This document shows positions 163 to 17,470 of a stretch of 64,000 nucleotides of DNA, in pieces. This stretch comes from Candidatus Omnitrophota bacterium (GTDB lineage Bacteria > Omnitrophota > Gorgyraeia > Velamenicoccales > JABMQK01): positions 902,032 through 966,031 of the forward strand of contig JAQTSV010000001.1 of the NCBI GenBank assembly GCA_028711115.1, written 5' to 3'. Position 1 is the first letter of the stretch. Every line of letters begins with the position of its first letter. Made by a program: the position numbers and the translations under genes. The notes beneath the pieces were generated by a model. It had not been told where the DNA came from, made no database searches, and saw nothing but the letters and a program-made list of their open reading frames with translations.

Positions 163-879
163 TCAAGTTTTTCTGACAAAGCTGTTACTCCTTTCTTTTA
201 AATTTTGCATAACCTTCTTTTTGAAATTACAGAATATCATTAATCCTGCAGAACCACTCTTCTCTGGATGAAACTGACATGCAAAAATGTTGTTATATTG
301 CAACCCTGAACAAAACTCAATATTGCCATATCTAGTTTGCGAAACACATACTGAAAAATCATCTGGAATAATATAAAATGAGTGCACAAAATACATATAT
401 TCGTAATCTTTTATTCCTTCCAATATGGTTCCTTTCCAGGGGTCTTGGGAAGTTTGGTTTTTAAACCGGTAAATATTGTTCCATTGTACCTGAGGAACCT
501 TAAGATTCCTTCCTGATTTATCCCTGAGTTTATCGAAAATAACCACTGAACCAGGAATAATATTCAGCCCTTTATGTTCACCGAATTCAAAACTCATAGA
601 CATAAGTAACTGCATACCTAAACAAATTCCCAGCAGAGGTTTTCCCGAATTAATAAAATCTATCAATACTGGAATCAAATCCATTTTTTGCAACATATAC
701 ATGGCGTCACCAAATGCCCCAACACCAGGCAGAATTAATGCATCGGATTCCAGAATCTCGCTTTTGTGCGATGTTACACCTGAATCCATTCCTGCAGCAG
801 CACAAGCCCGCTTGACGTTTAATATGTTGCCCATTCCATAATCAACAATGGAAATCTTAGGGGTTGTTTGGTTAACCAT
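163..879 (-). CDS. hisH: Class I glutamine amidotransferase, HisH-like subunit (paralog sitting in a sugar-biosynthesis cluster)
   Basis: ORF 163..897. GICLGMQLL (Cys nucleophile) and FHPEKS (His-Glu) motifs. I prefer the second Met (MVNQTTPKISIVDYGMGN, ATG at 879) because GAGG lies about 6-7 nt upstream and the overlap with the upstream stop shrinks to 8 nt. Confidence 0.8.
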   Translation of the reverse strand: MVNQTTPKISIVDYGMGNILNVKRACAAAGMDSGVTSHKSEILESDALILPGVGAFGDAMYMLQKMDLIPVLIDFINSGKPLLGICLGMQLLMSMSFEFGEHKGLNIIPGSVVIFDKLRDKSGRNLKVPQVQWNNIYRFKNQTSQDPWKGTILEGIKDYEYMYFVHSFYIIPDDFSVCVSQTRYGNIEFCSGLQYNNIFACQFHPEKSGSAGLMIFCNFKKKVMQNLKERSNSFVRKT

Positions 880-1747
880 TAAAAACCTCGCATCCAACCG
901 GAAAACGACACGCTACTCCATTATTGGTTAAAAATTCTTTTATATCCTGCAGATAAACCGGAGTAACCCTAGAGAAAGTTTGTTCACTTTTTAAATATTC
1001 TGTATTGCCTTCTTCTGAGAAATCACCCTCGAGAGAATGGTTTGCAATAACATCGTAATGTATCATCGAAGAGATAGCTACGGCATCGGCTTTACCATCA
1101 ACAATAATCTGTCTTATGTGTTCTAATCTTCCTCCTCCTCCGCAAGCAATAACAGGTATTGTAACAGACTCCGCTACCCGCTGTGTCAATTCAATATCAT
1201 AACCCAATCCGGTTCCTTCTTTGTCCACAGAAGTTAAAAGAATTTCTCCTGCCCCGAGTTCAAATACACGTTTGGCCCATTCAAATACATCCAGACCAGT
1301 ATGCTCTCTGCCATTATCGGTAAACGCAAGATATCGTCCATCAGGCTGTTTTATGGCTTCTATAGATACAACTATTGTTGACGAACCAAACTTCCTCGCG
1401 GCTTTTCTAATGAACTCTGGATTTTTTACCGCCGCAGTATTAATAGATACCTTATCTGCGCCGGCGCGTAAAACTGCATTTATATCGTTAATGGTACGTA
1501 AGCCTCCACCTACGGTTAAAGGTATGAAAACCTCTTTTGCTGTCTTTTCGATAATTGGCAAAAGACTGTTGCGGCCATACAGGCTTGCCACAACATCCAT
1601 ATAAATCAATTCATCAGCACCTGCCTGATAATAATATTTAGCAAATGACTCCGGTTTTCCCAAAACCCGCAATCCCTCCAGATGAATGCCTTTAACTAAA
1701 TTTGGTCCTTTAATATCTAAACGTGGTATTATGCGGATATTTTTCAT
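872..1747 (-). CDS. hisF: HisF-like cyclase subunit (imidazole glycerol phosphate synthase family, TIM barrel)
   Basis: N-terminus IIPRLDIKGPNLVKG, then GADELIYMDV, and GGG..., SINTAAV and ACGGGG phosphate-binding stretches typical of HisF. Overlaps the hisH-like gene. Confidence 0.8.
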   Translation of the reverse strand: MKNIRIIPRLDIKGPNLVKGIHLEGLRVLGKPESFAKYYYQAGADELIYMDVVASLYGRNSLLPIIEKTAKEVFIPLTVGGGLRTINDINAVLRAGADKVSINTAAVKNPEFIRKAARKFGSSTIVVSIEAIKQPDGRYLAFTDNGREHTGLDVFEWAKRVFELGAGEILLTSVDKEGTGLGYDIELTQRVAESVTIPVIACGGGGRLEHIRQIIVDGKADAVAISSMIHYDVIANHSLEGDFSEEGNTEYLKSEQTFSRVTPVYLQDIKEFLTNNGVACRFPVGCEVFNG

Positions 1748-1769: not shown

Positions 1770-2564
1770 TTATACTACCGTTAATCCTCCATCAACCATT
1801 ATAGTAGCGCCAGTAATATACGAAGAAGCATCTGAGGTTAGAAATAACACTACCGAAGCAACTTCTTCCGGTTTGCACATTCTCCCCAGAGGCACTCTTT
1901 TATTATAATTGCGAACAAATCTTCCATTCTGCTTGTTGAATATACCTCCCGGGCAGACTGTGTTTATTCGGATGCCATATTTACCGAAATAAGCTGCCAT
2001 ATACCTAGCAAGATTGACTATACCGCCTTTAATAGCAGCATAAGCCATCGGGCTAGTCATGGGCGTCCCCTCATATAAGTTAAAATCACTACCCTGAACC
2101 CCATATATAGAACCGAGGTTTACAATTGTACCCTTTGTTTTATTCTTCTTCATGATTAAAGCTGCATATCTGCTTGTCCAAGAATAAGAATTAAGATGCA
2201 TATCAACATTTTTACGCCAAGAGGAAAGCCTAACCTTTTCTATTGAATTACCCCAGTCGTTTGTCTTGGGGTAGGCGGCATTAATCCAGGCATCCATAGT
2301 TTTATATTTCTTGAGCAACTTATCCATATTTTTCTCTAAAGATTCTAATTTAGATATATCAAAATATTCATAAGATGCCTTGTGGCCAGATTTAAGTATT
2401 TGGTTCTGCAGAGATAATCCCTTCTTGCTATTAGTGTCTAATATAACTGTATCCGCACCAGCACAAGATAAGGCTATGGAAATTTCACTTCCAATAAGGC
2501 CTGCGCCTCCGGTTACAAATACGACTTTATTTTTTAAAATAAATTTCTGTAAATAATTAATCAT
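1770..2564 (-). CDS. Short-chain dehydrogenase/reductase (SDR) associated with the nonulosonic acid cluster
   Basis: TGGAGLIGS Rossmann motif, YAAIK (YxxxK) catalytic motif, 264 aa. 4-nt overlap with the upstream cytidylyltransferase gene. Confidence 0.75.
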
Positions 2565-3268
2565 AATTTAACCACTCCTTCTTTAACTAAAAATTCGATA
2601 AATTTAAAATCTAGCTCGCTATCTATATCTACCCCTGACAAGGATGGCATTTCGTAAATAAGAAATTTCTTAGAATATGGCATTCTGTTTTTTTCTTCAA
2701 GCAAGAATTCCCTTTTGTAAATATATATAGAACTATTCATATCATATACCAAAGGGGCATCCTGCCTTCTTAATATTATTTTAGGTCTTTGTTTGCATAG
2801 CTTGACGCCTTCCTTATCTTTCTCTATCATATTAAAATATGGATTTCTACGGCTCTTTACTACTGAAAAAACACAGTCTACGTTATTTTTAATAAATAAA
2901 TTTACAACACCTTCTATGTCATTGACAGTCCTAATGGGAGAAGTTGCGTCTATATCCAATAAGGCATCAAATCGTATTTTATAAAATTTTTCTGATTCTT
3001 TTAAGGCATGCCTTAAAGCCTCCAGTTTTCCGGTCTTATCGCCTGCCAATCTTTTAGGCCTGACAAAAGGCACTTCTGCACCATAAAACAGTGCTATATC
3101 TATAATTTTCTTGGAATCAGTTGAAACAATGAACTTTTCATATTTGCCCCATTTAATCATTTGTTCAATTGTATATGCAATCAACGGCTTTCCTAAAAGA
3201 TTACGGATATTTTTATTTTTTACTGACTTAGAACCGCCCCTGGCGGCAATGGTTCCTAGTATTTTCAT
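2561..3268 (-). CDS. Acylneuraminate cytidylyltransferase family (CMP-nonulosonic acid synthetase; NeuA/LegF-like)
   Basis: N-terminus [32 protein letters not shown] is the typical CTP_transf_3 start. 235 aa. Sits in a NeuB/NeuC context. Confidence 0.8.
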
Positions 3269-3286: not shown

Positions 3287-4342
3287 TCAAAAACCTAGAT
3301 TTTTAACTGCCCGATGATACTCTTCCCATTGACCAACATCTATCCATGAGTTTTCGTTAATAGGAAATACGCCAATCTTTTTATTTTTTTCTTTTAGTTT
3401 TTTAACCAAGTCTGTAATATGAAACTCTTGATTGTCTGGTATTAAATTAAGCGCTTTCTTTCTTAAAATATAAAAACCAGTATTAACCAAGAAATCATAT
3501 TCTGGTTTTTCGTGCATAGCTGTCAAAAAACCACCATTTTCTATCTTGCATATACCATACGGTATCGTATAGTGCTTCATTGAGGCAACGATTGTCATAT
3601 CATTTTTATTTTTTTCATGGAGTTCTAATACTTCTGTATAATCAGAATTAATAATGACATCACAATTGGTTACAAACAAAGAATCTTTTATTTCTTTACG
3701 TAAAAAACTAAGGCTGCCAATTGTACCCATAGGTTGTTTTTCTTCGATATAGCAAATAGTGTAACTGGTATTCATCTCTTCAAAATAAGATTTAATCATT
3801 CTTGATTTATGGTTGATGGTTATATAGAATTTCTTAATTCCATACTGAGAAAATTTATCCATAATAATATCTAATATTGTTTTCTCTCCAATAGGTATTA
3901 GTGGCTTCGGCAATATTTTTGTAAAAGGGTCAAGTCTTGTGCCTTTACCGCCAGCCATAATCACGACCGGGATGGATAGCTTTTCCCTGGAAGACAATAT
4001 TCTTTTACCAAAAGTAGCATCCCACAATAAAACATCTACCACTTCCTTGTTTTTATTTACCACGGGTATCCATTCAATTTTATTTCTTAGCATTAGCTTC
4101 TTTACTTCTTCAACAGAATAATTTTCTGATACTAAAATAGGATTTTTATTATAGATTTTACTGATTCCCCCGGATAAATTCCCTCCTGCTAAAATCCACC
4201 TGCGAATATCTCCGTCGGTAAGAGAGCCTATAAGTTTATTCTTACTATCTACTGCAAAGAGGACTTTTTCCCCGACATCCCCCATACGTTTCATTGCTTC
4301 TTTTACGGAAATATTTTTTGTAATCAATAGTGTTTTTTTCAT
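3287..4342 (-). CDS. CBS-domain plus sugar-phosphate nucleotidyltransferase (PtmE-like hexosamine-1-phosphate guanylyltransferase)
   Basis: N-terminal CBS pair (LTDGDIRRW, IEWIPVV) followed by [26 protein letters not shown], the nucleotidyltransferase G-loop. Same architecture as the Campylobacter legionaminic acid enzyme PtmE. Confidence 0.7.
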   Translation of the reverse strand: MKKTLLITKNISVKEAMKRMGDVGEKVLFAVDSKNKLIGSLTDGDIRRWILAGGNLSGGISKIYNKNPILVSENYSVEEVKKLMLRNKIEWIPVVNKNKEVVDVLLWDATFGKRILSSREKLSIPVVIMAGGKGTRLDPFTKILPKPLIPIGEKTILDIIMDKFSQYGIKKFYITINHKSRMIKSYFEEMNTSYTICYIEEKQPMGTIGSLSFLRKEIKDSLFVTNCDVIINSDYTEVLELHEKNKNDMTIVASMKHYTIPYGICKIENGGFLTAMHEKPEYDFLVNTGFYILRKKALNLIPDNQEFHITDLVKKLKEKNKKIGVFPINENSWIDVGQWEEYHRAVKNLGF

Positions 4343-4363: not shown

Positions 4364-5398
4364 TTATTTAAAATCATCCCAAGTGAATACCTCATCTTTA
4401 TTTTTATCCCTTATTAATTCTAAGCCGATTATCTTATTGTAATCCTTTGGAGAAGTACCGTATCCCGGCCTTTTTATCTCAATCATTTCTCGACAAATCT
4501 TCTCGCCTGCCTTCAAGTCTCTTGCTACAATTAAACTTTTACGAACCACTTTTATATTTTCCATTTCGCAATGCTGCGGTTTCTTTATACCATCTCCTAA
4601 GCCAATCTCTATATTGCGTATTGCCTTTACAAGCCGACCTAATTCTTCTGGCTCTGAAGACGCTTTATGATCAGGGCCAGGCATATTTTTATCAAGCGTA
4701 AAATGTTTTTCTATTATTGTGGCCCCTAACGCAACTGCCGCGACTGAAGCCTCTACTCCTATAGTATGGTCAGAATAACCCACGGGAAGGCAAAATTCTT
4801 TTTTAAGTGTCTGAATCGCCAAAAGATTCGCCTCTTTATAAGGACAAGGATAACTTGTTGTACAATGCATTAACGTCAAAGGTTTAAACATGGTGGTTTT
4901 CTTCAAACACCCTTGATTATCAATAATAATTTTAACCGCTTCTTTTACTTCTTTTAAGGTAGCCATTCCTGTTGAAAGCAATACAGGTTTGTTTCTTTGA
5001 GCAATATATTTAAGAAAAGGCAAATTATTTAAATCTCCGGAGCCAATTTTATAGGCAGGGACAATTTTTTCCAAGAAATCAACGCTTTCATAGTCAAAAG
5101 GCGTTGATAAAAATAATATACCTTTACGGTCGCAATATTGTTTCAGGGATATGAAAGATTCATAAGATAACTGGAGCCTCCTTAACATTTCCAACTGTCC
5201 TTCTTTAACTCGGGAAGAAGATAATTGGTATCTTGCTTTCTTTGTTAATCTGGAGGCTAAGTTTCCCGCTTTAAAAGTCTGAAATTTAATAGCATCAGCA
5301 CCTGCTTTATAGGCAGCATCTATTAATTCTAAAGCACAGGATTTCTTTCCATTATGATTTACGCCTGCTTCTGCAATTATAAATATTTTTTTATCCAT
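4364..5398 (-). CDS. neuB: N-acetylneuraminate synthase family (NeuB/LegI-type nonulosonic acid synthase) with C-terminal SAF domain
   Basis: IIAEAGVNHNG...AGADAIKFQTF, GYSDHT and EKHFTLD motifs. The C-terminal VVRKSLIVARDLKAGE stretch looks like a SAF domain. Confidence 0.85.
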   Translation of the reverse strand: MDKKIFIIAEAGVNHNGKKSCALELIDAAYKAGADAIKFQTFKAGNLASRLTKKARYQLSSSRVKEGQLEMLRRLQLSYESFISLKQYCDRKGILFLSTPFDYESVDFLEKIVPAYKIGSGDLNNLPFLKYIAQRNKPVLLSTGMATLKEVKEAVKIIIDNQGCLKKTTMFKPLTLMHCTTSYPCPYKEANLLAIQTLKKEFCLPVGYSDHTIGVEASVAAVALGATIIEKHFTLDKNMPGPDHKASSEPEELGRLVKAIRNIEIGLGDGIKKPQHCEMENIKVVRKSLIVARDLKAGEKICREMIEIKRPGYGTSPKDYNKIIGLELIRDKNKDEVFTWDDFK

Positions 5399-6872
5399 TA
5401 TTCTTGACGGCTACAAACGGAACTCCATATCCAACTATATTATCTTGGATATCATGTGTTACTACGCTTCCAGAACCAATTAAACAATGTTTTCCTATTT
5501 TTAAATATTGGTTAATCACTGCCCCTGCCCCGATATGGCTATAATCACCGATCTTTACTCCCCCACACAACACTGCCCCGGGGGCGATATGTACAAAATC
5601 CCCTATTTCACAATCATGATCGACAGACGAAGATGTATTTATGATGGCGTTTTTACCAATTCTTACGCCCGGATTAATTTTAACTCCTGCTGCGATAAAA
5701 GTACCCTCGCCTATCTTACAATCAGAAGCAATTACAGAAGAAGGATGAATTACCGTTGCTAAATTAAATCCTATCTTCTTTATATATTCATAAATTCTTA
5801 TTCTCGTAGAACAATCTCCGATCGAACCCACAGATATAAACGCGATTCTTAAGTTGTTTTTATATAAAGATACTAACTTTTCATCGCTTCCAATCATATC
5901 AACATTATTTTTTTCTTCACCGTATTTAAATTTTGGGTCAAATATTGCCCCTATTTGAAATTCACCAGACTTATGAATGGCATCAATAATCACATTGCAA
6001 TGCCCACCACCACCTATTAAAACTATTTTCTCTATATGTTTAGCAGGGATGTATTTTTCACTTATTTTAAATGGTTTTAATAAATTATCCTCTCTTATTT
6101 GTTCCGATATCCTCTCATTTATGACAGTAAATTCTTTTCCTTTGATTTCAATAGAAGCGCCATCGTAAGGCGGAAACCAAAAGGCCCTAATTTTCCTTTC
6201 TATTGCTTCAATATCGTCAGAAGGATAGATTTTGCGTAAATTCTCGAAATCTTGTTTAGATATATAACGGCCATCACCTTGAGGACAGCTCGGTAGCGAC
6301 CTCTTGCTATACGCTAAATCAATTACCTCTTTGAACAAATCGAGCATTACCCCTAAGCTCTTTTGTTCTAAAGAATATGCTGTCTCAATATCAGAGTTAA
6401 TATCAAATCGCTTAATTTTAATAATTTCACCTGTGTCAAAAGTTTCATCCATAACAAAATGCGCTGCCACGCCCCACGAGGATAACTGTTCAAAAATAGC
6501 GAAATTATATCCTCCCACCCCCCTGAAATCAGGCAGTGGTGCCGGATGAAAGTTAATACATCCTATCTTTGGTAAATCAATTAATGGCTTTTTAAGCCTC
6601 TTCCAAAAAAGAAAAGAAATAACCAAATCAATATTTTTCAGTGAATAACTTGAATCTAGAGCTTTTGTTTTATTTTTAAGGCGATCATACAACTCATCAT
6701 CTGTAACTACGGGTATCCCAAGTTTGCATGCCACATCAATGAGGCGTGTTTCTTGGGGAGCGGCTTCTTGCGTAGGTGCAACTACAGCCACAACCTCTAT
6801 GCCTTTGCTAAGGAGATATTTCAAGCCCTCCACAACAGCAGGTTTATCTTTCCCCATATAAATTACTCTCAT
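5391..6872 (-). CDS. Fusion protein: N-terminal formyltransferase domain plus C-terminal left-handed beta-helix sugar N-acyltransferase (PglD/NeuD/LegH-like)
   Basis: Residues about 1-270 carry INFHPAPLPDFRG (Asn/His) and DETFDTGEII (Asp), the formyltransferase catalytic motifs. Residues about 283-493 begin IVLIGGGGHCNVIIDAI (NeuD/PglD Rossmann-like N-domain), followed by hexapeptide repeats (IGEGTFI, IGKNAII, IGDFVHI, IGDYSHI, IGKHCLI). Confidence 0.75.
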   Translation of the reverse strand: MRVIYMGKDKPAVVEGLKYLLSKGIEVVAVVAPTQEAAPQETRLIDVACKLGIPVVTDDELYDRLKNKTKALDSSYSLKNIDLVISFLFWKRLKKPLIDLPKIGCINFHPAPLPDFRGVGGYNFAIFEQLSSWGVAAHFVMDETFDTGEIIKIKRFDINSDIETAYSLEQKSLGVMLDLFKEVIDLAYSKRSLPSCPQGDGRYISKQDFENLRKIYPSDDIEAIERKIRAFWFPPYDGASIEIKGKEFTVINERISEQIREDNLLKPFKISEKYIPAKHIEKIVLIGGGGHCNVIIDAIHKSGEFQIGAIFDPKFKYGEEKNNVDMIGSDEKLVSLYKNNLRIAFISVGSIGDCSTRIRIYEYIKKIGFNLATVIHPSSVIASDCKIGEGTFIAAGVKINPGVRIGKNAIINTSSSVDHDCEIGDFVHIAPGAVLCGGVKIGDYSHIGAGAVINQYLKIGKHCLIGSGSVVTHDIQDNIVGYGVPFVAVKNNG

Positions 6873-6891: not shown

Positions 6892-8064
6892 TTATTTACC
6901 GGTATAAAAAGTTTTTGCTAATAATCCTTTGCCTATCTTTATATTTTTCAATGTTTCTTTAATCCTTGAGGAAGTCCGGCCATCGCCAAAGGGATTTTTC
7001 AGATTAATCAGCCTCTTCTTAAATTCTTTGCTTAAAGCTATTCTGGCTGCTTTAACTATAGACTCAGTAATGCACACGCAATCAATTACATTTGCGGCCT
7101 TATATCTTGCCTCCTGTCTTCTTCCGATATTAACTACCGGCAATTTAAAAGAAGGCGCCTCGTGAATGCCGCTGGAAGAATTACCTATCATAATATCAGC
7201 GCATTTCAATAAAGATAAATATCTCCTCTGACCCAAAGAATTGAATATCCTTACTTTAGCTTGATTCTTTTTTGCATACTGCAATATTTGTTTATAAATA
7301 ATGCTCGAGCCTATATCGGCTCCGGGAAAAGTAAATACTGTTCTTAAGCCTAAAATATCAAGGGCTTCTAATAAATTTCTTATTTGGCCAAGAGGTTCGG
7401 CATTGCCTAATGTCTCGGGATGGTATGTTACTACTGCAATCGGATTATCTAGCAAAAAATTAAGTTCTTTTTCCAGTTGATGTTTAGATAATAATTCGCA
7501 TTTTTTAATGCCATCTACGGCCGGAGAGCCAAAAACAAAAACCCTGTCAGGGGATTCGCCCATACGTATTATTCTCTGGGCATATTTAGCCACGGAAGGA
7601 AAATGAATATAAGACATCTTTGTAATGGCGTGGCGGAATCCTTCATCGAGGCAACCAGCAGTAATTTCTCCACCGTGAATATGCGCTATAGGTATCCTGG
7701 CTACATACGCTGCTACTGCTGCTGCAAAAATTTCATACCTGTCACCAAGAAGCACTACCATATCCGGTTTTAATTTTCTGTAGGCCTTTACAAATCCTAA
7801 AACACCCTTGGATATAGCTTTAGCAATACCTAATTCAGTATCAGCATATTTTGAAGAAAGCACAGGAATTTTAGCATTGACATTAAAACCATCTTCTTTT
7901 ATTTGTTTATAAGTTAAACCATATTCGACAGATAAATGGGCGCCGGTTACCGCCAATTGTAGTTTTAATCCTCCATCTCCGCAGATTTCTTTCAATAGCC
8001 AGAATAAAATGCCATATTCAGCCCGGGAACCAGTAACTACGCAAATTTTCCGTTTCTTAGTCAT
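6892..8064 (-). CDS. neuC: Hydrolysing NDP-sugar 2-epimerase (NeuC/LegG family)
   Basis: KICVVTGSRAEYG start, HIHGGE and HPET motifs. 390 aa. Adjacent to the NeuB-like gene. Confidence 0.8.
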   Translation of the reverse strand: MTKKRKICVVTGSRAEYGILFWLLKEICGDGGLKLQLAVTGAHLSVEYGLTYKQIKEDGFNVNAKIPVLSSKYADTELGIAKAISKGVLGFVKAYRKLKPDMVVLLGDRYEIFAAAVAAYVARIPIAHIHGGEITAGCLDEGFRHAITKMSYIHFPSVAKYAQRIIRMGESPDRVFVFGSPAVDGIKKCELLSKHQLEKELNFLLDNPIAVVTYHPETLGNAEPLGQIRNLLEALDILGLRTVFTFPGADIGSSIIYKQILQYAKKNQAKVRIFNSLGQRRYLSLLKCADIMIGNSSSGIHEAPSFKLPVVNIGRRQEARYKAANVIDCVCITESIVKAARIALSKEFKKRLINLKNPFGDGRTSSRIKETLKNIKIGKGLLAKTFYTGK

Positions 8065-9235
8065 TTTTGAGTGCTTTTACTACTTTTTTAATTTCATTTT
8101 CCGTAATCCCTATGCTGCATGGAATATTCAAAATCCTCTCAGAAAAATAATAAGCCTTCTCAATCTTATAATTCTCGTAGTCTTTATACGGTTTCTGCAA
8201 ATGATTTAAATGCCACAAAAACCTGCTTTGTATTCCTTTTCTTTTTAACCGCTCATGTAACTGATCCCTATTCATACCATAAATCTTTTCTTCTACTATC
8301 AGAGAGTAGAACCAGAAATTTGAAAAACCGTAATCTGGCTCACCTATCAGTTTAAGCCCTTCAATTTCGTCGATATATTTTTTATAAGCGAGATAATTTC
8401 TCCTTTTGATTCCTATAAATTTATCCAGCTGTTCAAGTTGGGCACAACCTAAGGCAGCACTCAAATTAGTCATTCTATAATTATACCCGATTTCATTATG
8501 AATATATCTTAAGTTGTCGTCCTTTGCCTGGGTGGTAAGATATTTTGCTTGTTTAGCATAATAAGAATTATTGGTAAGCACCATACCGCCTGCGCCTGAG
8601 GTAATAATCTTATTCCCATTGAAGGAATAGCACCCTACATCTCCTATGGTGCCGGTCTTTTTGCCTTTTAATCTTCCCTTGGTATAAAATGACCCGATAG
8701 ATTCAGCTGCATCTTCAATTATTTTTAAATTATACTTTTTAGCAACATCGTCCAAGGATTCTAAATCTACAGGATTACCGAATACATGTACTGCGATAAC
8801 AGCTTTAATGTGTGAACCAGTTTTTTTGTTGATTAATTTTCCATTCATAAACTTGCATTCATATTTGCAGAATTCCCTGACTTTATTTACATCCATATTA
8901 AGAAAACCATCGCAATCCATAAATATGGGATCTGCCCCTACATACTTTGCGGCATTTACAGGGGCAATAAATGTAATTGTGGGGACTATTACGCTATCGC
9001 CTTTGGTTACTCCCGCTAAAATCAAAGCAATATGTAAAGCAGCTGTGCCGTTTACACAGCTAATTGCATATTTTGTTCCTGCATAATCAGCCACTTTATT
9101 CTCAAACATATCTACAAAACTACCAGCAGAAGAAATCCATTCCTTTTCTATGCATTCCTTAACATACTTCAGTTCTTTACCCCGCAAAAAAGGCACAGAC
9201 AGACTAATGTTATATTTAATAGCAGTATTAAACAT
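8057..9235 (-). CDS. DegT/DnrJ/EryC1/StrS family PLP aminotransferase (LegC/PglE-like)
   Basis: ORF runs to 9289, but I prefer the internal Met (MFNTAIKYNISLSVPFLRGKELKYV). It gives the usual family N-terminus and reduces the overlap with the upstream gene to 8 nt. YSFNGNKIITSGAGGMV carries the PLP lysine region. Confidence 0.8.
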   Translation of the reverse strand: MFNTAIKYNISLSVPFLRGKELKYVKECIEKEWISSAGSFVDMFENKVADYAGTKYAISCVNGTAALHIALILAGVTKGDSVIVPTITFIAPVNAAKYVGADPIFMDCDGFLNMDVNKVREFCKYECKFMNGKLINKKTGSHIKAVIAVHVFGNPVDLESLDDVAKKYNLKIIEDAAESIGSFYTKGRLKGKKTGTIGDVGCYSFNGNKIITSGAGGMVLTNNSYYAKQAKYLTTQAKDDNLRYIHNEIGYNYRMTNLSAALGCAQLEQLDKFIGIKRRNYLAYKKYIDEIEGLKLIGEPDYGFSNFWFYSLIVEEKIYGMNRDQLHERLKRKGIQSRFLWHLNHLQKPYKDYENYKIEKAYYFSERILNIPCSIGITENEIKKVVKALKND

Positions 9236-10232
9236 TATAAATATCCCATTTATATTTCGTGAAATTTTGTTTATTACTAAACCAATCAATAGTTTTTTTG
9301 ATACCTTCTTTCAAAGAAACCTTTGGCTTCCAGTTCGTCATCTCTTTTATAACGGTGTTATCACATAATAAACGTTCTACCTCGCTCTTCTCCGGCCTTT
9401 TTCTTATGCTGTCTGAAACGATTTTTGCCTTTGGATTTATCTGTTCTATTATCAGTTTTGCAAGGTTGCCGACGGTTATTTCCTGGCCAGAGCCTATATT
9501 AACTACTTTACCAATAGCGCCGCTGCATTTGGCAACCGCTACAAATCCTTCGCATGTATCGCTTACGTAAGTAAGATCTCTCGTGGGATGAAGCGAACCA
9601 AGTCTTATTTTGCTGCTATTGTTTAAAAGCTGGGTAATTATGGTGGGTATGAGTGCTCTTGCAGACTGACGTGGGCCATAAGTATTGAATGGCCTGGCAA
9701 TTACAACAGGAACATCAAAAGATCTATAAAAACTTTCCGCTATGGCATCTGCTCCGATTTTCGAAGCTGAATACGGCGATTGTGACTGTAAAGGATGTTT
9801 TTCGTCTATAGGAATATACCTGGCTGTACCATATACCTCAGACGTCGAAGTGACAACTACTCTTTCAATATTGCAATTCCGGCAGGCCTGCAAGATATTT
9901 AATGTGCCTTTGATATTTGTCTCAACATAAGAATCGGGGGAATTATAAGAAAAGGGTATGCCTATTAAGGCTGCCAGATGAAAAACTATATCTATGTTAT
10001 TATTCTTTATTACCGCACAAATACCGTTATGATCCCTGATATCTCCGGTAAAAACCTCAATGTTTTTTAACTTGTCCTTTGAAAGCGTATCTAACCATCC
10101 CCAAGAATTAAATGAATTATAATAGACGAAGGCCTTAACATTGCAATTTTCTTCCAGCAATCTTTCTACTAGATGGCTGCCGATAAATCCGCATGCGCCC
10201 GTAATAAGGACTGTTTTGTTTTTCAGTTTCAT
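9228..10232 (-). CDS. NAD-dependent NDP-sugar 4,6-dehydratase/epimerase (extended SDR; LegB/PglF-like)
   Basis: VLITGACGFIGSHL Rossmann motif, STSEVYG and YSASK (YxxxK). 334 aa. First gene of the nonulosonic acid block. Confidence 0.8.
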   Translation of the reverse strand: MKLKNKTVLITGACGFIGSHLVERLLEENCNVKAFVYYNSFNSWGWLDTLSKDKLKNIEVFTGDIRDHNGICAVIKNNNIDIVFHLAALIGIPFSYNSPDSYVETNIKGTLNILQACRNCNIERVVVTSTSEVYGTARYIPIDEKHPLQSQSPYSASKIGADAIAESFYRSFDVPVVIARPFNTYGPRQSARALIPTIITQLLNNSSKIRLGSLHPTRDLTYVSDTCEGFVAVAKCSGAIGKVVNIGSGQEITVGNLAKLIIEQINPKAKIVSDSIRKRPEKSEVERLLCDNTVIKEMTNWKPKVSLKEGIKKTIDWFSNKQNFTKYKWDIYNV

Positions 10233-10238
10233 AAAATT

Positions 10239-11780
10239 TTAGACTACACTCATAGTTTTCTTATTATTTTTATAAAAATCCTGGATAGCCTGGATTATGC
10301 TAATAGCATTTTCTTTTTGTGAAATGTTGGCCATTTTGTCATAATAATCGATCACGACATATCCTCTGTAACATGTTTTTTCCAAGGCATAAAGAAAAGC
10401 CTTTACTTTATCGCTATCTACTTTATATCCCTTTTGTATTTTTGATATGGCTTCTTTGCAGCTTTCTACCGTGGGTGTATAAAAAACGCCTTCGCAGGCC
10501 CTATACCAAGCATAACCGAAGATAAGCGCTGGCTTGCCTCTTACTACTGCCTCCCAACCCGCGGTTCCCGTTACGGTAGCAATTGCCATAGAATTATCAA
10601 TCAAATCAAATGTAGAAACTGAAAGAGGAATCAATTTTACATTCGGGAGTGAAGCTATATCATTATAAAAATCAAATGACCTGAAACGGTCTCCTGCGGT
10701 GTATTGGGCGAATTGGTTTAAATGTTCCTTGACATAAAGGCACCAGCCTTCCGGAATAGACTTGGAAAGTAAATCGACCATCAAGAATTGATTCACAAAA
10801 ACCCCGCCCCTTGGCGAAGTAGAATTTTCCGGTTGATAAGCAAGCGCCACATATATATATGGTTTGTCCAACGAGACTTTTTGGGTTAATTTATTATAAT
10901 GGTCCTTCAGCTTCTTTTTCTTTCTATTGGAATCGAATTTGCATAATTTAACAAACTTAAGATATGTCATCTGCGAATCCTCAAATCTTTTATTCTTCTG
11001 TTTTAAATAATTTGGCGGTGCAGGTTTATAGATAAAACCGATATACTTATACAAGGCCTTAATCTTATTGGTGATAAAAACTACAAAATTATAATTTCGT
11101 TTCTTTTCAATCAGCCCTTTCATATAAGTAGGCGAAGCTGTTGAGCGATCGCTGGAAACCTTATTCCAATAATTCTCCATAGACGGGGATAAGGTATATT
11201 GTAAAGTTTTTCCATTAGACAATAATTTATTATAAAAATTTATAGTGGCATCGAATTCATCTTCTACATTTTCTATGGGAAAGAAAAATCCACTGAACAT
11301 AAGAAACATAACTGTCTTTATTCTTTTCCTTTTGCATAACATATAGAGAATGTAATCAAATACTTCGTGGGGAGTAGTGGGAAATACTACCACATCAGGT
11401 TTATAATAATCCAATACAGCAAGCCAGTATTTAATCTGAAAATAATAAAGCCGCAATCGTTCCTGATAAGTGAAAGCATTGCCGGGGTCCATTCTTTCCA
11501 GCATATTGAATACTGTAGACTCATGGATTGATAAATCTTGAAGCAGGGTTTGATCTAATGCGGGAAGCGTAAATTGCGGACAATTGGAAGGCCTGATTCC
11601 CCTAATTGCATTCATATTGTTATGAAACACTGCATCGGGAAAAGCTTTCTTGATAACATCTGCTACTCTGGCCCCTCCGATCCAATAACAGATTTCCCAG
11701 CCGTCTTCTTTTTCAAGATGTTTGGCCACATCCACCCAAAAAGGCTCAGAACACTCCGCAAAAATCGCCCTTATAGACAC
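10239..11780 (-). CDS. Capsule_synth (KpsS/KpsC-like) family glycosyltransferase; candidate ulosonic/nonulosonic acid transferase
   Basis: The segment YIYVALAYQPENSTSPRGG...LYVKEH resembles the KpsS/KpsC core (Q..E/D...vKxHP). Lies between wzt and the nonulosonic acid genes with no gap to wzt. Assigned from memory of family motifs only. Confidence 0.45.
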   Translation of the reverse strand: MSIRAIFAECSEPFWVDVAKHLEKEDGWEICYWIGGARVADVIKKAFPDAVFHNNMNAIRGIRPSNCPQFTLPALDQTLLQDLSIHESTVFNMLERMDPGNAFTYQERLRLYYFQIKYWLAVLDYYKPDVVVFPTTPHEVFDYILYMLCKRKRIKTVMFLMFSGFFFPIENVEDEFDATINFYNKLLSNGKTLQYTLSPSMENYWNKVSSDRSTASPTYMKGLIEKKRNYNFVVFITNKIKALYKYIGFIYKPAPPNYLKQKNKRFEDSQMTYLKFVKLCKFDSNRKKKKLKDHYNKLTQKVSLDKPYIYVALAYQPENSTSPRGGVFVNQFLMVDLLSKSIPEGWCLYVKEHLNQFAQYTAGDRFRSFDFYNDIASLPNVKLIPLSVSTFDLIDNSMAIATVTGTAGWEAVVRGKPALIFGYAWYRACEGVFYTPTVESCKEAISKIQKGYKVDSDKVKAFLYALEKTCYRGYVVIDYYDKMANISQKENAISIIQAIQDFYKNNKKTMSVV

Positions 11781-13088
11781 TTATTTATTCTCCTTGTTCG
11801 GTGATGAGGAGTTTTCGCTGTATCTCCAAGAATGATCACACAGAAAAATCCCAAGATCACTCACTGATCTGCCTGTACCGTAAAAATCACCTGCCACAAC
11901 TTCAAATAAGGCGGCATCAGGTAATCTGTCTCCATGGACATTATTCACGTCAGCCTTTAAATCGATAATATATTTATTGGGCCTTAGCGGAAAACGTGGT
12001 ATACGGCAAATCAATTCCCCTTTTTTAGGTAATTTTTCAAAATCCTGCCCTGTTTTTCTGGACCACAAACAAAGCAAATCCCTTCCCAGGTCGTCACGAA
12101 TCCAAAACCAAACCGTAACATTACCAACTGTTTCATCTTTGCAAACATAACTGAAAACAAAATCTACAGTTTCTCCCGCGACTATACAATCAATGGGATT
12201 TCCGTCTTTATCCTGCAATCTAAATCCCGTAAAACGTATTGAGCCTGCGCCAACCCTGTCAGTGCGCTCCGCAATAGGAACCTGCCATACACCGCGCTCT
12301 ACATAAGAAGAAAGATATCTTTTTACAATTTGCTGCGAAGGTCCTTCATCTTCTTTTTCACCTTGATGTAACCAAATAGCCCTTGAGCATAAACCCATTA
12401 TGGCTTCCATATTATGGCTTACCAATAGCACTGTTCTTCCCTGATGAGTAACGCTGCTCATTTTATTTAGGCATTTTTTTTGAAAAGCAACGTCGCCGAC
12501 TGCCAAAACCTCGTCTACTAATAAAATTTCTGTCTCAAGGTGTGCTGCCACAGCAAATGCCAGACGCATATGCATTCCGCTGGAATAAAATTTTACAGGC
12601 GTATCTATAAATTCCTCCACGCCGGCAAAATCTACTATTTCATCAAATTTGCGAGTTATTTCTAGCCGTTTCATACCTAAGATTGCACCGTTTAAATATA
12701 TATTGTCCCTTCCGGTTAATTCCGGGTGGAATCCCGTACCTACTTCCAATAGAGAACCCACGCGGCCATAAATATCGCCAAAGCCGGTAGTCGGTTCGGT
12801 TATCCGGGAAAGTATCTTAAGAAGAGTTGTTTTTCCGGCGCCATTATGACCAATAATCCCCACAGCTTCTCCGTGTCTAACCTCTAAAGAAAGATTTTTA
12901 AGCGCCCACTTGGTTTTGGTAAGGCCGGATGCTGCGTAAGCCTGCCCGCGCAATAATTCCGCAGCTTTACGAAAAGGCGTCTTGAAGGCATCCGAAAGAG
13001 TATCCCTAAAAGTGCTGTATCTGGCCTTAAGCGTACCAATACGGTATTGTTTACTTATGTTTTCTACCTTTATAGCAATATTACTCAT
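11781..13088 (-). CDS. wzt: Polysaccharide ABC exporter ATP-binding protein with C-terminal glycan-binding domain (Wzt/TagH type)
   Basis: Walker A GHNGAGKTTLLK, signature YSSGMHMRLAFA and Walker B LLVDEVLAVGD. A roughly 170-aa C-terminal beta-rich extension is typical of Wzt_C. Confidence 0.85.
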   Translation of the reverse strand: MSNIAIKVENISKQYRIGTLKARYSTFRDTLSDAFKTPFRKAAELLRGQAYAASGLTKTKWALKNLSLEVRHGEAVGIIGHNGAGKTTLLKILSRITEPTTGFGDIYGRVGSLLEVGTGFHPELTGRDNIYLNGAILGMKRLEITRKFDEIVDFAGVEEFIDTPVKFYSSGMHMRLAFAVAAHLETEILLVDEVLAVGDVAFQKKCLNKMSSVTHQGRTVLLVSHNMEAIMGLCSRAIWLHQGEKEDEGPSQQIVKRYLSSYVERGVWQVPIAERTDRVGAGSIRFTGFRLQDKDGNPIDCIVAGETVDFVFSYVCKDETVGNVTVWFWIRDDLGRDLLCLWSRKTGQDFEKLPKKGELICRIPRFPLRPNKYIIDLKADVNNVHGDRLPDAALFEVVAGDFYGTGRSVSDLGIFLCDHSWRYSENSSSPNKENK

Positions 13089-13092
13089 GTTT

Positions 13093-13932
13093 TTAGATTA
13101 CATCTGCAAATGTTTTTTCCATACGACGAAAATATAAAGCCCCGCTAATTAATATAATAAATGCTGCCAAAGCCGAAATAAAAATAATAGGCCCCGGAGG
13201 AGTATTTATCCCCAATAATGCCCAGCGGAAACCTTCCACTACCCCTACCATAGGATTTATACCATACAGTGTTCGCCATGGCTCTTTTAATAAACTACTG
13301 GGATAGGCTATGGGCGTAGCAAACATCCAGACCTGGATAAAAAACGGTATGGCATACTGCACATCACGGAATTGAGCGTTCATTGCCGTAAACCATAACC
13401 CCACACCCAAGGATGTAATAACAACCAATAAACAAAGCAAGGGAAGCCATATAACTGCTGCAGTAGGAACGATACCATAACAAAACATCATCACCAGTAG
13501 CACTAAGAAAGCCAGCATAAAATCAATGCCTTTAGATAATATTGCCGAAAGAGGAATGAGTATGCGCGGGAAATAAATTTTCTTAATTAAATTCGCGTTA
13601 GATACTAAGCTGCTAGATGCATCAGATAAACCACTGGCAAAAAACGACCATGGCACTAATGCGGCATAACTGAAAATCGGATAAGGTATTCCGTCGGAAG
13701 GCATCTTGGCTAATTTTCCAAAAAAAAGCGTAAATACCACCATAGTAAACAGAGGTTGTATGATAGCCCAGGCTACGCCTATTACCGTCTGTTTATATCT
13801 TACTTTTATGTCTCTCCAGGAAAGGAAATAAAGCAACTCGCGGTATTTCCATACCTCCACAAAATCGATACCTCTCCATCCGCCAGTAGGTTTAATATGG
13901 ATATGTAATGTATCTGTTGTAGTTTCAGCCAT
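13093..13932 (-). CDS. wzm: ABC-2 type polysaccharide exporter permease (Wzm/TagG type)
   Basis: N-terminal WKYRELLYFLSWRDIKVRYKQTVIGVAWAIIQP is the ABC-2 permease signature region. About 6 TM segments. Immediately upstream of wzt. Confidence 0.85.
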   Translation of the reverse strand: MAETTTDTLHIHIKPTGGWRGIDFVEVWKYRELLYFLSWRDIKVRYKQTVIGVAWAIIQPLFTMVVFTLFFGKLAKMPSDGIPYPIFSYAALVPWSFFASGLSDASSSLVSNANLIKKIYFPRILIPLSAILSKGIDFMLAFLVLLVMMFCYGIVPTAAVIWLPLLCLLVVITSLGVGLWFTAMNAQFRDVQYAIPFFIQVWMFATPIAYPSSLLKEPWRTLYGINPMVGVVEGFRWALLGINTPPGPIIFISALAAFIILISGALYFRRMEKTFADVI

Positions 13933-14297
13933 CAGGATATCCTGTTTTCTAATAGATTATTCAATTTTTCCCACTCTTGTTTAATCTTCCCATACTCAGA
14001 TTCTTTCTTTTTTAAAAAACGATACATAAGGCTTATTTTTTCCTGCATCCCTTTCTTAGTTAGAAGGTATTTTATTCTTCTTAATTTATTAGGTTTGCGA
14101 GAAAAAGTCTTAACTTTAATCATGCCTTTTTTTAGCAATTCATTAATCAAATAATTGGTTTTACCAAGGGAGACATTAAGTTTTGAGGCAAGTTCTCTTT
14201 GGGTGAGATGCGGATATTTATCCAGCTCTGCAAGAAAAAAAAGAGTCTCTTCTTTTTCCAATTTATTTCTATTTGATGTGGGGGCTTGTTCAGACAT
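13932..14297 (-). CDS. EPS-associated MarR-family winged-helix transcriptional regulator
   Basis: LTQRELASKLNVSLGKTNYLINELLKKGMIKVK...KYLLTKKGMQEK...FLKKKESEYGKIKQE matches my recollection of the small EPS-associated MarR subfamily. 1-nt overlap with wzm. Confidence 0.65.
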   Translation of the reverse strand: MSEQAPTSNRNKLEKEETLFFLAELDKYPHLTQRELASKLNVSLGKTNYLINELLKKGMIKVKTFSRKPNKLRRIKYLLTKKGMQEKISLMYRFLKKKESEYGKIKQEWEKLNNLLENRIS

Positions 14298-16471: not shown

Positions 16472-17470
16472 TTATACTTTTGCTTCTCTTAGATATTTTA
16501 TTGCGACTTCCGGCGGGGTAACTACTGCATAGAATCCTGTTCCCCATTCAAAACCTGCGATACCTGTCAGTCGGGGCATTATCTCTATATGCCAATGATA
16601 ATATTCGTGGTCTTCTTTGTCGCAAGGAGCTGTGTGTACAATAAAATTATAAGAATGATCATCCAAAGCAATCTTTAACCTTAGCAATGTTTCTCTTAAG
16701 ATCTTGGCTAATTCCAATCTTTGCCTTTCATTCATTTCACAAAAATGGCTGGCATGTTCTTTAGGAATTATATGAACTTCGAAAGGAAATCTGGAGACAA
16801 ACGGACAAAAAGAAACAAAGTATTTATTCTCAATCAAAATTCTTTCTTTTTCCTGCAATTCCTGCCTGATAATATCACAGAATATACAGCGCTCTCGATA
16901 TTCGAAATAAGTACTTGCCCCGGATAATTCTTCCAAGACATTTTTGGGAATCATGGGAAGGGCAATCAGCTGCGTATGGGAATGTTCCAAGGAAGCCCCA
17001 GCTATTGCACCACGGTTTTTAAAAATTAAAATATATCTGAATCTGCTATCTTTTTGTAAATCTATGGATCGACGGCAATACATATTAATACTCATTGCTA
17101 CTTCTTCATCGGTCAAATCCGTAATGTCCTTATTATGATAAGGCGTTTCTATTACTACTTCGTGAGCTCCTATCCCATTGGACATATCATAAATACCTAT
17201 GCCTCTTCTTTCCAAATCTCCCTCGATTTGTAAGGCGGGAAATTTATTCGCCACTGTCCTTACCAACCAACCAGGAGTATTGGGATGGGTTTCTTCATGG
17301 CGAACGGCATCTATCTCCGGAGGGGTCATAAATTCATTACCGTAACAAAACGGACAAGGGCCACTGCGGGGTATGTGTTCTTCCTTTGCGAAATCGCTGG
17401 GAATCTTAGGTGTATCTACATTAATTATCACCCATCTACCGCCAACAGGATCTTTTCTCAGCTCTGCCAA
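16472..17470 (-). CDS. galT: Galactose-1-phosphate uridylyltransferase family (GalT, HIT branch III), catalytically complete copy
   Basis: ELRKDPVGGRWVII start, CPFC zinc motif, HSHTQ (His163/His165 equivalent to E. coli HPHGQ), second half-site HWHIEIMPR. Confidence 0.8.
   Translation of the reverse strand: MAELRKDPVGGRWVIINVDTPKIPSDFAKEEHIPRSGPCPFCYGNEFMTPPEIDAVRHEETHPNTPGWLVRTVANKFPALQIEGDLERRGIGIYDMSNGIGAHEVVIETPYHNKDITDLTDEEVAMSINMYCRRSIDLQKDSRFRYILIFKNRGAIAGASLEHSHTQLIALPMIPKNVLEELSGASTYFEYRERCIFCDIIRQELQEKERILIENKYFVSFCPFVSRFPFEVHIIPKEHASHFCEMNERQRLELAKILRETLLRLKIALDDHSYNFIVHTAPCDKEDHEYYHWHIEIMPRLTGIAGFEWGTGFYAVVTPPEVAIKYLREAKV

Follow-up and report, generated by a model that had tools for sequence, protein, structure and literature searches.

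We identified a gene for a candidate bifunctional sugar N-acyltransferase in a legionaminic acid (Leg) gene cluster of a Candidatus Omnitrophica metagenome-assembled genome (MAG). The gene lies in a window of 64,000 nucleotides, which is the whole stretch of DNA that was analysed, and occupies positions 5391–6872 of the minus strand (493 amino acids plus a stop codon) between legG and legI. Its product consists of a formyltransferase domain (residues 1–262), a linker (residues 263–280) and a PglD/NeuD-type acetyltransferase domain (residues 281–493). A sequence-only reading had proposed such a single two-domain frame, without giving its strand, and profile matches to Formyl_trans_N and to PglD_N and Hexapep bear it out. 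The fusion architecture is new; both of its component enzyme types are already familiar.

The cluster around the fusion is complete, with the order legB-legC-legG-fusion-legI-ptmE-legF, and all of its genes are on the minus strand. The NAD-dependent 4,6-dehydratase LegB (9228–10232; TIGR04180, 492 bits versus a cutoff of 475), the aminotransferase LegC (8057–9235; TIGR04181, 476 bits versus a cutoff of 420) and the hydrolysing 2-epimerase LegG/NeuC (6892–8064; TIGR03568, 448 bits) are encoded upstream. The legC start at 9235 is that of the public gene call, and the longest open reading frame begins at 9289. Downstream of the fusion are genes for the nonulosonate synthase LegI/NeuB (4364–5398; TIGR03569, 453.5 bits), a PtmE-like protein with CBS and sugar-1-phosphate nucleotidyltransferase domains (3287–4342; profiles), a LegF-type CMP-nonulosonate synthase (2561–3268; CTP_transf_3) and a PtmA-like short-chain dehydrogenase (1770–2564; profile). 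These are followed on the same strand by HisF-like (872–1747) and HisH-like (163–897) amidotransferase subunits, which together span 163–1747 and whose WbuX partner sits just outside the start of the window. The PtmE-like gene points to a GDP-linked route; the locus, earlier assigned to a nonulosonic acid pathway, can be specified as a legionaminic acid cluster of the GDP type with a full gene set, in which no acyltransferase candidate other than the fusion is encoded. No deacetylase homologue (PIG-L or polysaccharide deacetylase) was found in the window or in its extension, and no PIG-L gene in the locus labelled L088. A deacetylase-dependent N5 route was rejected, there being no homologue of either type.

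The fusion starts 19 nucleotides past the legG stop codon and at its other end shares 8 nucleotides with the start of legI. An AlphaFold model contains two folded domains bridged by a low-confidence linker of about 18 residues (6033–6086 on the minus strand, delimited from the model and sequence comparison). Residues 264–279 have pLDDT values below 50, and the linker sequence varies between the fusion proteins that were inspected. The junction had been placed near coordinate 6032, which corresponds to about residue 281. An assembly or frameshift artefact, or an inactive remnant domain kept as a scaffold, might be suspected of a MAG-derived gene whose NCBI protein name mentions only an acetyltransferase. 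However, an NCBI MAG contig and a Logan assembly made independently from SRR22315508 agree over the whole gene at 100% identity with no gaps, and six contigs in public data carry the identical protein. Inspection revealed no homopolymer and no stop at the junction. The two other frames of the strand have 48 and 62 stops, and the GC contents of the gene halves are 0.373 and 0.360, versus 0.37 for the window. At least eight other proteins, from other samples, have the same domain pair fused, in both domain orders. The window protein and all of these fusions retain the catalytic sets of both domains (Asn-His-Asp and a histidine). A frameshift or assembly artefact was rejected on the agreement of independent assemblies and the clean junction, and the conserved catalytic residues speak against the loss of activity in either domain. 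Judged from the sequence data the junction is genuine, and we regard an artefact or a dead domain as very improbable.

The N-terminal domain (6087–6872, minus strand) resembles WbkC-like sugar N-formyltransferases in its profiles, alignments and fold. Residues 22–172 match Pfam Formyl_trans_N (PF00551; E 4.6e-15, 56.3 bits versus a gathering cutoff of 26.1), in keeping with the earlier description of this half as a formyltransferase. The catalytic motif INFHPAPLPDFRG (residues 106–118; 6519–6557, minus strand) includes N107 and H109, and the motif DETFDTGEI (residues 142–150; 6423–6449, minus strand) includes the catalytic D146. These three residues, which had been pointed out correctly from the sequence, are the same in all 15 sequences of a family alignment and line up with the catalytic motifs of Brucella WbkC and with Fmt. 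The domain has the Asn-His-Asp triad of the HxxxLPxxRG and DTG motifs of N10-formyl-THF-dependent formyltransferases. An OB-like C-terminal subdomain had also been proposed, but the fusion protein has no match to Pfam Formyl_trans_C (PF02911), and residues 165–262 are modelled as helices and a beta-hairpin. The fold best covers compact 4-N sugar formyltransferases, with target-normalised TM-scores of 0.74–0.78 for WbkC, 0.76 for WbtJ and 0.74 for the P. congelans enzyme, and ArnA is among the top fold matches. Methionyl-tRNA formyltransferase identity was rejected: the TIGR00460 score is far under its cutoff (66 versus 201.5 bits), and a housekeeping fmt gene is present at 18564–19499. Scores of 57.7 versus a cutoff of 238 for NF005755 (dTDP-4-amino-4,6-dideoxyglucose formyltransferase) and of 52.5 versus a cutoff of 777 for the ArnA family NF005998 suggest that the domain is related to both families and a member of neither. 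Its nearest solved relatives all act on 4-amino or 3-amino groups. From these comparisons and the model, the domain is predicted to be of a compact WbkC-like sugar 4-N-formyltransferase type.

The C-terminal half begins with a PglD_N nucleotide-sugar-binding subdomain (residues 282–363; 5784–6029, minus strand; PF17836, E 3.5e-13), which starts with IVLIGGGGHCNVIIDAI. The left-handed beta-helix acetyltransferase core that follows (residues 364–493; 5394–5783, minus strand; profiles and AlphaFold model) is built of hexapeptide repeats and matches Hexapep (PF00132) five times (E 3.9e-29). Residues 282–485 score 208.9 bits versus a cutoff of 160.8 with TIGR03570 (NeuD/PglB/VioB), which agrees with the NeuD/PglD-type second domain of the sequence-only reading. 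The catalytic His419 in VDHDC (coordinates 5616–5618), conserved across the other fusions, aligns with the VDHDC histidine of PerB, the position at which the variant entries 4eaa and 4eab have N and A instead. The best solved match is PerB (E 1.8e-35), a 4-N-acetyltransferase that acts on a GDP-sugar. The domain shares 57% identity with a PglD domain that is fused to NeuB in L096, a nearly syntenic cluster, where this PglD~NeuB protein is the sole acyltransferase inside the Leg gene block; another gene with hexapeptide repeats is found some 6 kb upstream. Since L096 has no other PglD-type domain in the block and no formyltransferase, this relative must supply the LegH step there, and the C-terminal domain is its orthologue. 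Its place in a complete leg cluster with no other acyltransferase similarly qualifies it as a candidate LegH.

These relationships bear on the possibility that the acetyltransferase has been repurposed. The formyl group would then go to the 4-amine, giving an N7-formyl product, and the C-terminal domain would either acetylate the 2-amine of GDP-GlcN, a step performed by GlmU in Campylobacter, or O-acetylate the nonulosonate as a NeuD-like enzyme. With a PtmE-like gene present, GDP-GlcN has to be acetylated by some enzyme, gene context places the N-domain family on the 4-amine, and the C-terminal domain matches TIGR03570, with E. coli NeuD having been described as an O-acetyltransferase (PMC6137143). 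However, both the 57% identity to a domain required for the LegH step and the match to PerB argue for action on a 4-amine, and we consider repurposing improbable.

The N-terminal domain represents a family of about 273 amino acids with its own invariant motifs, whose members are usually annotated as Met-tRNA formyltransferase. We found 403 relatives in species-representative genomes; the best 80 of these 403 family loci, from a profile scan of genome contigs, come mostly from Thermoleophilaceae MAGs. A match in Fusobacterium carries no annotation. The nearest standalone homologue from an Omnitrophota MAG (L004) gives no functional clue because it sits among housekeeping genes. In a rough domain tree (neighbour joining on BLOSUM distances without support values) the fusions sit on different branches; we use the tree solely as evidence of the scattering of PglD-associated domains. 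In L045 the formyltransferase and the acetyltransferase are unfused neighbours. Family members are also found as Fmt-like~NeuB fusions, the mirror of PglD~NeuB, and are fused or adjacent to a FemAB-like GNAT in Leg clusters L009–L011 and L090 and to a small GNAT in L015. Other loci have a single candidate: in the Leg-type clusters L091, L097 and L108 a relative is the only acyltransferase seen, as judged within a flank of about 10 kb, and L013 has no other among the genes checked. In Desulfobulbus oralis and Bacillus freudenreichii a relative is located between Bac_transf and DegT, with no acetyltransferase present. This gene context suggests that, within such a flank, the family fills the LegH/PglD slot elsewhere as the sole acyltransferase. 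A PIG-L deacetylase was found near close relatives of the domain in none of 96 loci.

We propose that the fusion is a bifunctional sugar N-acyltransferase of the GDP-linked legionaminic acid pathway. LegB and LegC would produce GDP-4-amino-4,6-dideoxy-alpha-D-GlcNAc, and the C-terminal half, as an acetyl-CoA-dependent LegH with the PglD/PerB fold, would acetylate its 4-amino group. The N-terminal half, as a WbkC-like N10-formyl-tetrahydrofolate-dependent sugar N-formyltransferase, would use the same LegC product, such that either formyl or acetyl is placed on the 4-amino group. LegG, LegI and LegF would then deliver both Leg5Ac7Fo (5-acetamido-7-formamido) and Leg5Ac7Ac (5,7-diacetamido) legionaminic acid, which the WbuX/HisH/HisF amidotransferases encoded downstream may modify further. 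The substrates and acyl donors, and most of all the regiochemistry, are our inference. On the canonical route only the 4-amine is free, the 2-amine having been acetylated beforehand. A common 4-amino target is suggested by this, by the orthology of the C-terminal domain to a sole LegH, by the N-domain family's occupation of the LegH/PglD slot, by the lack of a deacetylase at all 96 loci and by the distinctness of the domain from the legG-adjacent formyltransferases described below. That both domains acylate this one amine, yielding 7-N-formyl and 7-N-acetyl legionaminic acids, is the likeliest reading, which we hold tentatively and with somewhat less than even confidence. Given the formyltransferase domain, the sugar at the cell surface is likely to bear formyl.

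Several observations count against a shared amine. It is unusual to fuse two enzymes that compete for one substrate, and where a fusion has arisen repeatedly and independently, the enzymes joined usually both serve the making of a single product. Campylobacter PtmE, reportedly in work by Schoenhofen in 2009, makes GDP-GlcN with a free 2-amine, and since the cluster has a PtmE-like enzyme a second acceptor amine may exist. Moreover, Halorubrum sp. PV6, in which a predicted formyltransferase gene adjoins neuD in the cluster, makes 5-N-formyl-legionaminic acid (PMC6137143). The PtmE-like enzyme might thus supply an intermediate derived from GDP-GlcN, on which the formyltransferase domain would formylate the free 2-amine and the LegH domain would acetylate the 4-amine, to give Leg5Fo7Ac, the product found in Halorubrum. 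The repeated fusion of the domain pair in both orders, the conservation of both catalytic sets in every fusion and the pairing of the family with FemAB-like or small GNATs are all consistent with two amines.

However, the legG-adjacent formyltransferase is of a different subtype (314 amino acids in haloarchaea, about 293 in L110 and L112, where it comes after NeuC) that matches Pfam Fmt_N and Fmt_C where annotated and is only 23% identical to the window's N-terminal domain (E 4e-7, 36–47 bits). The Halorubrum enzyme HrrPV6_1050, whose gene directly follows legG and gave a 953-bp RT-PCR product (PMC6137143), is probably of this subtype, to judge by gene position and size. The Halohasta and Halorussus clusters serve as proxies for Halorubrum, with orthology drawn from gene position and the 953-bp size only. 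A tblastn of plasmids recovered a Halorussus megaplasmid only, and no Halorubrum entry was among the 120 matches listed in a homologue search with the protein from that megaplasmid. A PIG-L deacetylase gene accompanies the legG-adjacent subtype alone, in L092, L094/L095 and L110/L111. The window has neither feature of the N5-formylating route, that is, neither this subtype nor PIG-L in the cluster. L110 encodes both PtmE and PIG-L, which suggests that in clusters of the PtmE type the 2-amine has still to be freed by a deacetylase. Formylation of a 2-amine would also depart from the 4-amino and 3-amino specificity of the closest solved relatives and, on the rough tree, would require several switches in regiospecificity to account for relatives that are sole acyltransferases. 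We regard action on two amines as less likely, but as a serious contender. The earlier proposal that two acyl groups are placed on two amines is sustained in its architecture and intact catalytic sets, whereas its mechanism is not favoured by the comparative data. A nonulosonate with one formyl and one acetyl N-substituent, as that reading also predicted, is a likely product, and has precedents in the Halorubrum sugar (PMC6137143), in Pse5Ac7Fo made via PseJ (PMC11040635) and in the formylated CMP-NulO of Ca. Kuenenia (bioRxiv 10.64898/2026.04.20.719630).

A more speculative extension is obligatory two-step di-N-acylation. A GDP-GlcN route would bypass GlcNAc, and one protein would write both N5-formyl and N7-acetyl on a GDP-2,4-diamino sugar. 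The N-terminal domain would then be the first known 2-N sugar formyltransferase, and the FemAB-GNAT~Fmt and PglD~PglD fusions would act in parallel as further "two-acyl writers", a source of diversity among nonulosonates. We consider this doubtful. If instead both domains compete for one amine, the protein would be a rare fused "either/or" tailoring enzyme.

The N-acyl groups of nonulosonic acids govern the recognition of surface glycans by antibodies, phages and lectins, and the enzymes that add non-acetyl groups are largely unknown. The locus brings to light a widespread and uncharacterised sugar formyltransferase family, which stands in for LegH/PglD or accompanies it in legionaminic acid pathways and in those of the bacillosamine type, and it shows the repeated fusion of formyl- and acetyltransferases. 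The system is compact, comprising a single protein, two donors of acyl groups and either one or two amines as acceptors. It could show by what means bacteria vary their sialic-acid-like sugars, and its enzymes could be of use in the chemo-enzymatic synthesis of N-formyl legionaminic acids.

A literature search for a fused formyl/acetyl sugar transferase, or for Leg5Ac7Fo or Leg5Fo7Ac by name, returned nothing beyond the Halorubrum paper. The gene order legG - formyltransferase - NeuD-type acetyltransferase - ... - legI is the same in Halorubrum sp. PV6, where formylated legionaminic acid is a known product. However, HrrPV6_1050 and HrrPV6_1051 (NeuD) are two genes rather than one fusion, and the formyl group is on N5. 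The C-terminal domain shares its PglD_N subdomain, left-handed beta-helix and catalytic histidine with LegH, PglD and PerB (TIGR03570), but bears a 262-residue formyltransferase at its N-terminus, while its closest relatives are NeuB-fused or standalone. The best sequence and fold match of the N-terminal domain is WbkC, the GDP-perosamine N-formyltransferase of Brucella melitensis (PDB 5VYR–5VYU; E 1.7e-14). The two have in common the HxxxLPxxRG, DTG and IRAFWFPP/IRAMFFPP motifs, and the substrate of WbkC is GDP-linked; however, identity is only about 25% and the domain falls in a separate family. The formyltransferase PseJ (PDB 6CI2) also works within a nonulosonic acid pathway, with an N7-formyl sugar as the outcome, the same logic as proposed here. 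It is a distant relative of the N-terminal domain (E 6.6e-5) and belongs to the Pse rather than the Leg pathway. We know of no PseJ fused to an acetyltransferase. In ArnA, too, a sugar N-formyltransferase domain is joined to another enzyme from its own nucleotide-sugar pathway. The partner in ArnA is an SDR decarboxylase that catalyses a different step, whereas the partner in the fusion described here is a second N-acyltransferase, which may share its acceptor.

The 493-aa protein is encoded by a single ORF on the minus strand (5391-6872), a two-domain arrangement that had been described from the sequence without its strand. A Formyl_trans_N match spans residues 22-172 (Pfam, E 4.6e-15), followed by a PglD_N match at residues 282-363 (E 3.5e-13) and then by hexapeptide repeats in five stretches (E 3.9e-29), and NCBIfam assigns residues 282-485 to the NeuD/PglB/VioB sugar acetyltransferases (TIGR03570, 208.9 bits; cutoff 160.8). 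The sequence-only reading quoted the correct catalytic residues, N107 and H109 within INFHPAPLPDFRG and D146 within DETFDTGEI, and correctly placed the domain junction near coordinate 6032, which corresponds to residue 281. Its OB-like C-terminal subdomain of the formyltransferase was not recovered: Pfam gives no Formyl_trans_C match, and an AlphaFold model (mean pLDDT 78.5, greater than 90 across residues 1-230) has helices and a beta-hairpin there.

The N-terminal domain (residues 1-262) is a member of a large, uncharacterised family whose proteins are approximately 273 aa long; a motif scan found 403 relatives among 185,579 species-representative genomes. Invariant in the family are N107, F108, H109, P110, L113, P114, D146, and G148, plus an RAFxxPP motif. 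Where public sources name its members, the name is mostly 'methionyl-tRNA formyltransferase'. The domain scores far below every NCBIfam cutoff for the fmt, ArnA, and dTDP-4-amino-4,6-dideoxyglucose formyltransferase equivalogs. Its best solved relative is the GDP-perosamine N-formyltransferase WbkC of Brucella (E 1.7e-14). Structurally, the compact enzymes WbkC, WbtJ, and that of P. congelans cover the fold best, with target-normalised TM-scores of 0.74-0.78, whereas Fmt and the formyltransferase domain of ArnA reach 0.58-0.67. A close standalone homologue (55% identity) in another Omnitrophota MAG (WGBD01000007.1; loci L004/L014) is flanked by tsaE and by a PTS EIIA gene, outside any sugar cluster.

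It is highly improbable that the fusion is an artefact or that one of its domains is dead. The identical protein occurs on six contigs, including those of the Candidatus Omnitrophica MAG GCA_028716625.1 and the independent Logan assembly of SRR22315508, in both of which the DNA is 100% identical and gapless across the junction. No homopolymer was found in the junction DNA, GC content is the same in both halves of the gene, and the two alternative frames of the same strand contain 48 and 62 stops. In the model, a low-confidence linker (residues 264-279) separates two folded domains. At least eight further proteins from unrelated samples fuse the same domain pair, with the formyltransferase first (P0046, P0274) or second (P0008, P0016, P0077, P0241, P0280, P0317); they fall on separate branches of a rough domain tree, and all retain the catalytic Asn-x-His and Asp and the acetyltransferase His. 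A Gammaproteobacterial locus (L045) has the unfused state, with overlapping ORFs in the order Fmt-like, PglD-type, DegT.

Other multi-domain acyltransferases were also encountered. Tandem PglD-PglD double acetyltransferases are common among the best matches (P0290, P0291, P0295, P0304, P0314, P0329, P0358, P0360, P0371), one 865-aa protein carries four PglD-type repeats (P0253), and another combines a FemAB-GNAT domain with two PglD domains (P0370). Polypeptides with several acyltransferase domains seem to form a recurring theme that is so far undescribed. In Thermoleophilaceae/Solirubrobacterales MAGs (L019-L086; P0053), a GT1 glycosyltransferase is directly upstream of, or fused to, the Fmt-like domain, a lineage-wide formyltransferase-glycosyltransferase fusion; this arrangement is found in ~60 of 87 loci (80 of the 87 being the best-ranked from the genome scan), often with DegT and Bac_transf within 10 kb. 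FemAB-like GNAT domains (PF13480/PF02388) are fused to Fmt-like domains in proteins of ~630 aa (L009-L011, L090; P0007, P0009; ~15 further clusters), which occur in Acidobacterial legionaminic acid (Leg) clusters beside LegB, PtmE, NeuC, NeuB, and LegF; the contigs showed no DegT. Should the FemAB-like domain act as an aminoacyl transferase, the residue that it adds might be the one formylated by the formyltransferase. In L021 (L021:10001-11356) and P0269, the Fmt-like domain is fused to a C-terminal extension of ~190 aa; Pfam finds no domain in that of L021. In L015 (L015:9537-10004), the Fmt-like gene has a NUDIX gene directly upstream, which suggests a possible connection with the hydrolysis of nucleotide sugars.

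The fusion lies in a cluster encoded entirely on the minus strand in the order legB (TIGR04180, 492 bits), legC (TIGR04181, 476 bits), legG/neuC, fusion, legI/neuB, a PtmE-like CBS-nucleotidyltransferase, a legF-type cytidylyltransferase, a PtmA-like SDR, HisF, and HisH (Pfam and NCBIfam). It is the sole acyltransferase candidate in the cluster, which contains no PIG-L or polysaccharide deacetylase homologue. The longest legC ORF (8057-9289) uses a TTG start at 9289 and would overlap legB by 62 nt; the true start is probably 9235, as in the public gene call (392 aa). Upstream, the cluster is preceded by genes for an ABC transporter (Wzm/Wzt) and a KpsS/C-like protein; the region directly upstream of legB (10239-14297) encodes a 513-aa protein (weak Capsule_synth, KpsS/KpsC-like), Wzt with Wzt_C, Wzm, and a small HTH protein. 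In all probability this ABC transporter exports a polysaccharide that incorporates the nonulosonate or is capped by it. Elsewhere in the window, two tandem paralogous ORFs of 332 and 340 aa (16472-17470 and 17473-18495) adjoin GAPDH and precede the housekeeping fmt; the public call for the 332-aa ORF gives galactose-1-phosphate uridylyltransferase-type families (GalP_UDP_transf, DUF4921/DUF4931).

Beyond the window start, the contig encodes WbuX, a B12/radical-SAM enzyme, a second WbuX, and a second HisH and HisF. There are two complete amidotransferase sets (L088:16694-21482, on the extended contig, and window 163-1747), each WbuX (TIGR03573, 356 and 350 bits) having its own HisH and HisF, with the B12-binding radical-SAM enzyme between the sets. 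Two amidine-forming systems are unusual for a sugar bearing two N-acyl groups; both N-substituents may be converted, or two product variants handled separately.

By sequence comparison, the C-terminal domain (residues 281-493) is a predicted LegH orthologue. This assignment is made because its best solved match is the GDP-perosamine N-acetyltransferase PerB (E 1.8e-35), its closest relatives are PglD-NeuB fusions, and one of these (P0055, 57% identity) sits in a cluster with nearly the synteny of the window's, ordered rSAM, LegB, LegC, PglD-NeuB, NeuC, PtmE, LegF, PtmA, HisF, HisH, WbuX-like, with no formyltransferase and no second acyltransferase inside the Leg gene block. A separate hexapeptide-repeat gene lies ~6 kb upstream. 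H419 aligns with the PerB histidine replaced in variant entries 4eaa/4eab.

Relatives of the N-terminal domain often occupy acyltransferase positions themselves. The relatives in Desulfobulbus oralis and in Bacillus freudenreichii are flanked by genes for Bac_transf (EpsL/PglC-like) and for a DegT aminotransferase and have no acetyltransferase gene close by, which is the EpsM/PglD slot of a bacillosamine-type cluster. In several Leg-type clusters the relative is the sole acyltransferase seen within ~10 kb: in the Micrarchaeota locus L091, in L108, and, among the genes checked there, in L013. Weaker relatives in L114 and L172 have the same role, their 31-32% identity being no better than to other formyltransferase subtypes. 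In L097 the relative is fused to NeuB, as LegH is elsewhere, with no PglD-type gene in view; in Acidobacterial Leg clusters it is fused to a FemAB-like GNAT; and in L015 a small GNAT gene follows it. A PglD-type domain is fused or adjacent in the window, L005, L006, and L045. Nine loci combine a close relative with a NeuB gene; four of them have such a partner acetyltransferase and five lack one.

In the best-supported reading, which we favour tentatively, the 4-amino group produced by LegC is the target of both domains. Acetyl would be added to it from acetyl-CoA by the LegH domain, and formyl from N10-formyl-THF by the WbkC-like domain, giving Leg5Ac7Ac and Leg5Ac7Fo, possibly amidated afterwards. 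Its main weakness is that recurrent fusion of two competing enzymes is hard to rationalise. The sequence-only reading instead had the fusion place two different acyl groups on the 2,4-diamino sugar. Applied to this pathway, that model would have the 2-amine of an intermediate derived from GDP-GlcN formylated and the 4-amine acetylated, yielding Leg5Fo7Ac as in Halorubrum. This agrees with the logic of a fusion and with PtmE being encoded. It needs a regiospecificity unknown for the formyltransferase superfamily, and the pattern of subtypes and deacetylases described below lends it no support; we consider it a serious but less likely rival. Repurposing of the acetyltransferase domain for 2-N-acetylation or O-acetylation is less probable still. 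The mixed N-formyl/N-acetyl product proposed earlier survives as a fairly robust prediction, because a legionaminic acid with one formyl and one acetyl N-substituent is common to all main scenarios, although the two-amine mechanism attached to it is less supported than action on a single amine.

N5 formylation elsewhere appears to be associated with other genes. Leg-like clusters of a Halorussus plasmid and Halohasta encode legG, a 314-aa Fmt_N+Fmt_C protein, a 236-aa formyltransferase, and a PIG-L deacetylase, with no NeuD. The Halorussus caseinilyticus cluster (L092; NZ_CP119810.1, 342496-363002) has a polysaccharide deacetylase besides PIG-L, and L094/L095 likewise have two formyltransferase genes and PIG-L; this content, lacking a NeuD-type acetyltransferase, suggests a di-N-formyl or otherwise non-acetylated nonulosonate. 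Bacterial L110 and L112 are ordered LegH, a third formyltransferase subtype, NeuB, NeuC, and a legG-adjacent formyltransferase, followed in L110 by a PIG-L homologue. These loci (L110:7061-16273, L112:7151-14734) thus encode three acyl-transfer enzymes, LegH and two formyltransferases of differing subtype, for two amines; L110 additionally encodes a 594-aa thiamine-diphosphate-type enzyme. Bacterial and haloarchaeal legG-adjacent formyltransferases cluster together at 149-184 bits, whereas the N-terminal domain matches the haloarchaeal members at only 36-47 bits and the Halohasta protein at 23% identity. HrrPV6_1050 of Halorubrum sp. PV6 comes after legG and gave a 953-bp product (PMC6137143); by this gene position and product size, rather than by sequence, it probably belongs to the legG-adjacent subtype. 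Because PIG-L was seen only with that subtype, and none of the 96 loci that hold close relatives of the N-terminal domain has it, the N5 route looks different: in the loci seen, known or likely N5 formylation goes with a deacetylase and a different formyltransferase, and the window has neither.

Each domain type was already known, as were N-formylated nonulosonic acids and the presence of formyltransferase genes in nonulosonic acid clusters (PMC6137143; PMC11040635; bioRxiv 10.64898/2026.04.20.719630). In the literature that could be searched, we found neither a formyl/acetyltransferase fusion nor this family of formyltransferases described, and NCBI names the protein as an acetyltransferase only. 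The fusion is a new architecture built from known enzymes, and would be of greater interest if it were shown to work by a two-amine mechanism or to be a true either/or tailoring enzyme.
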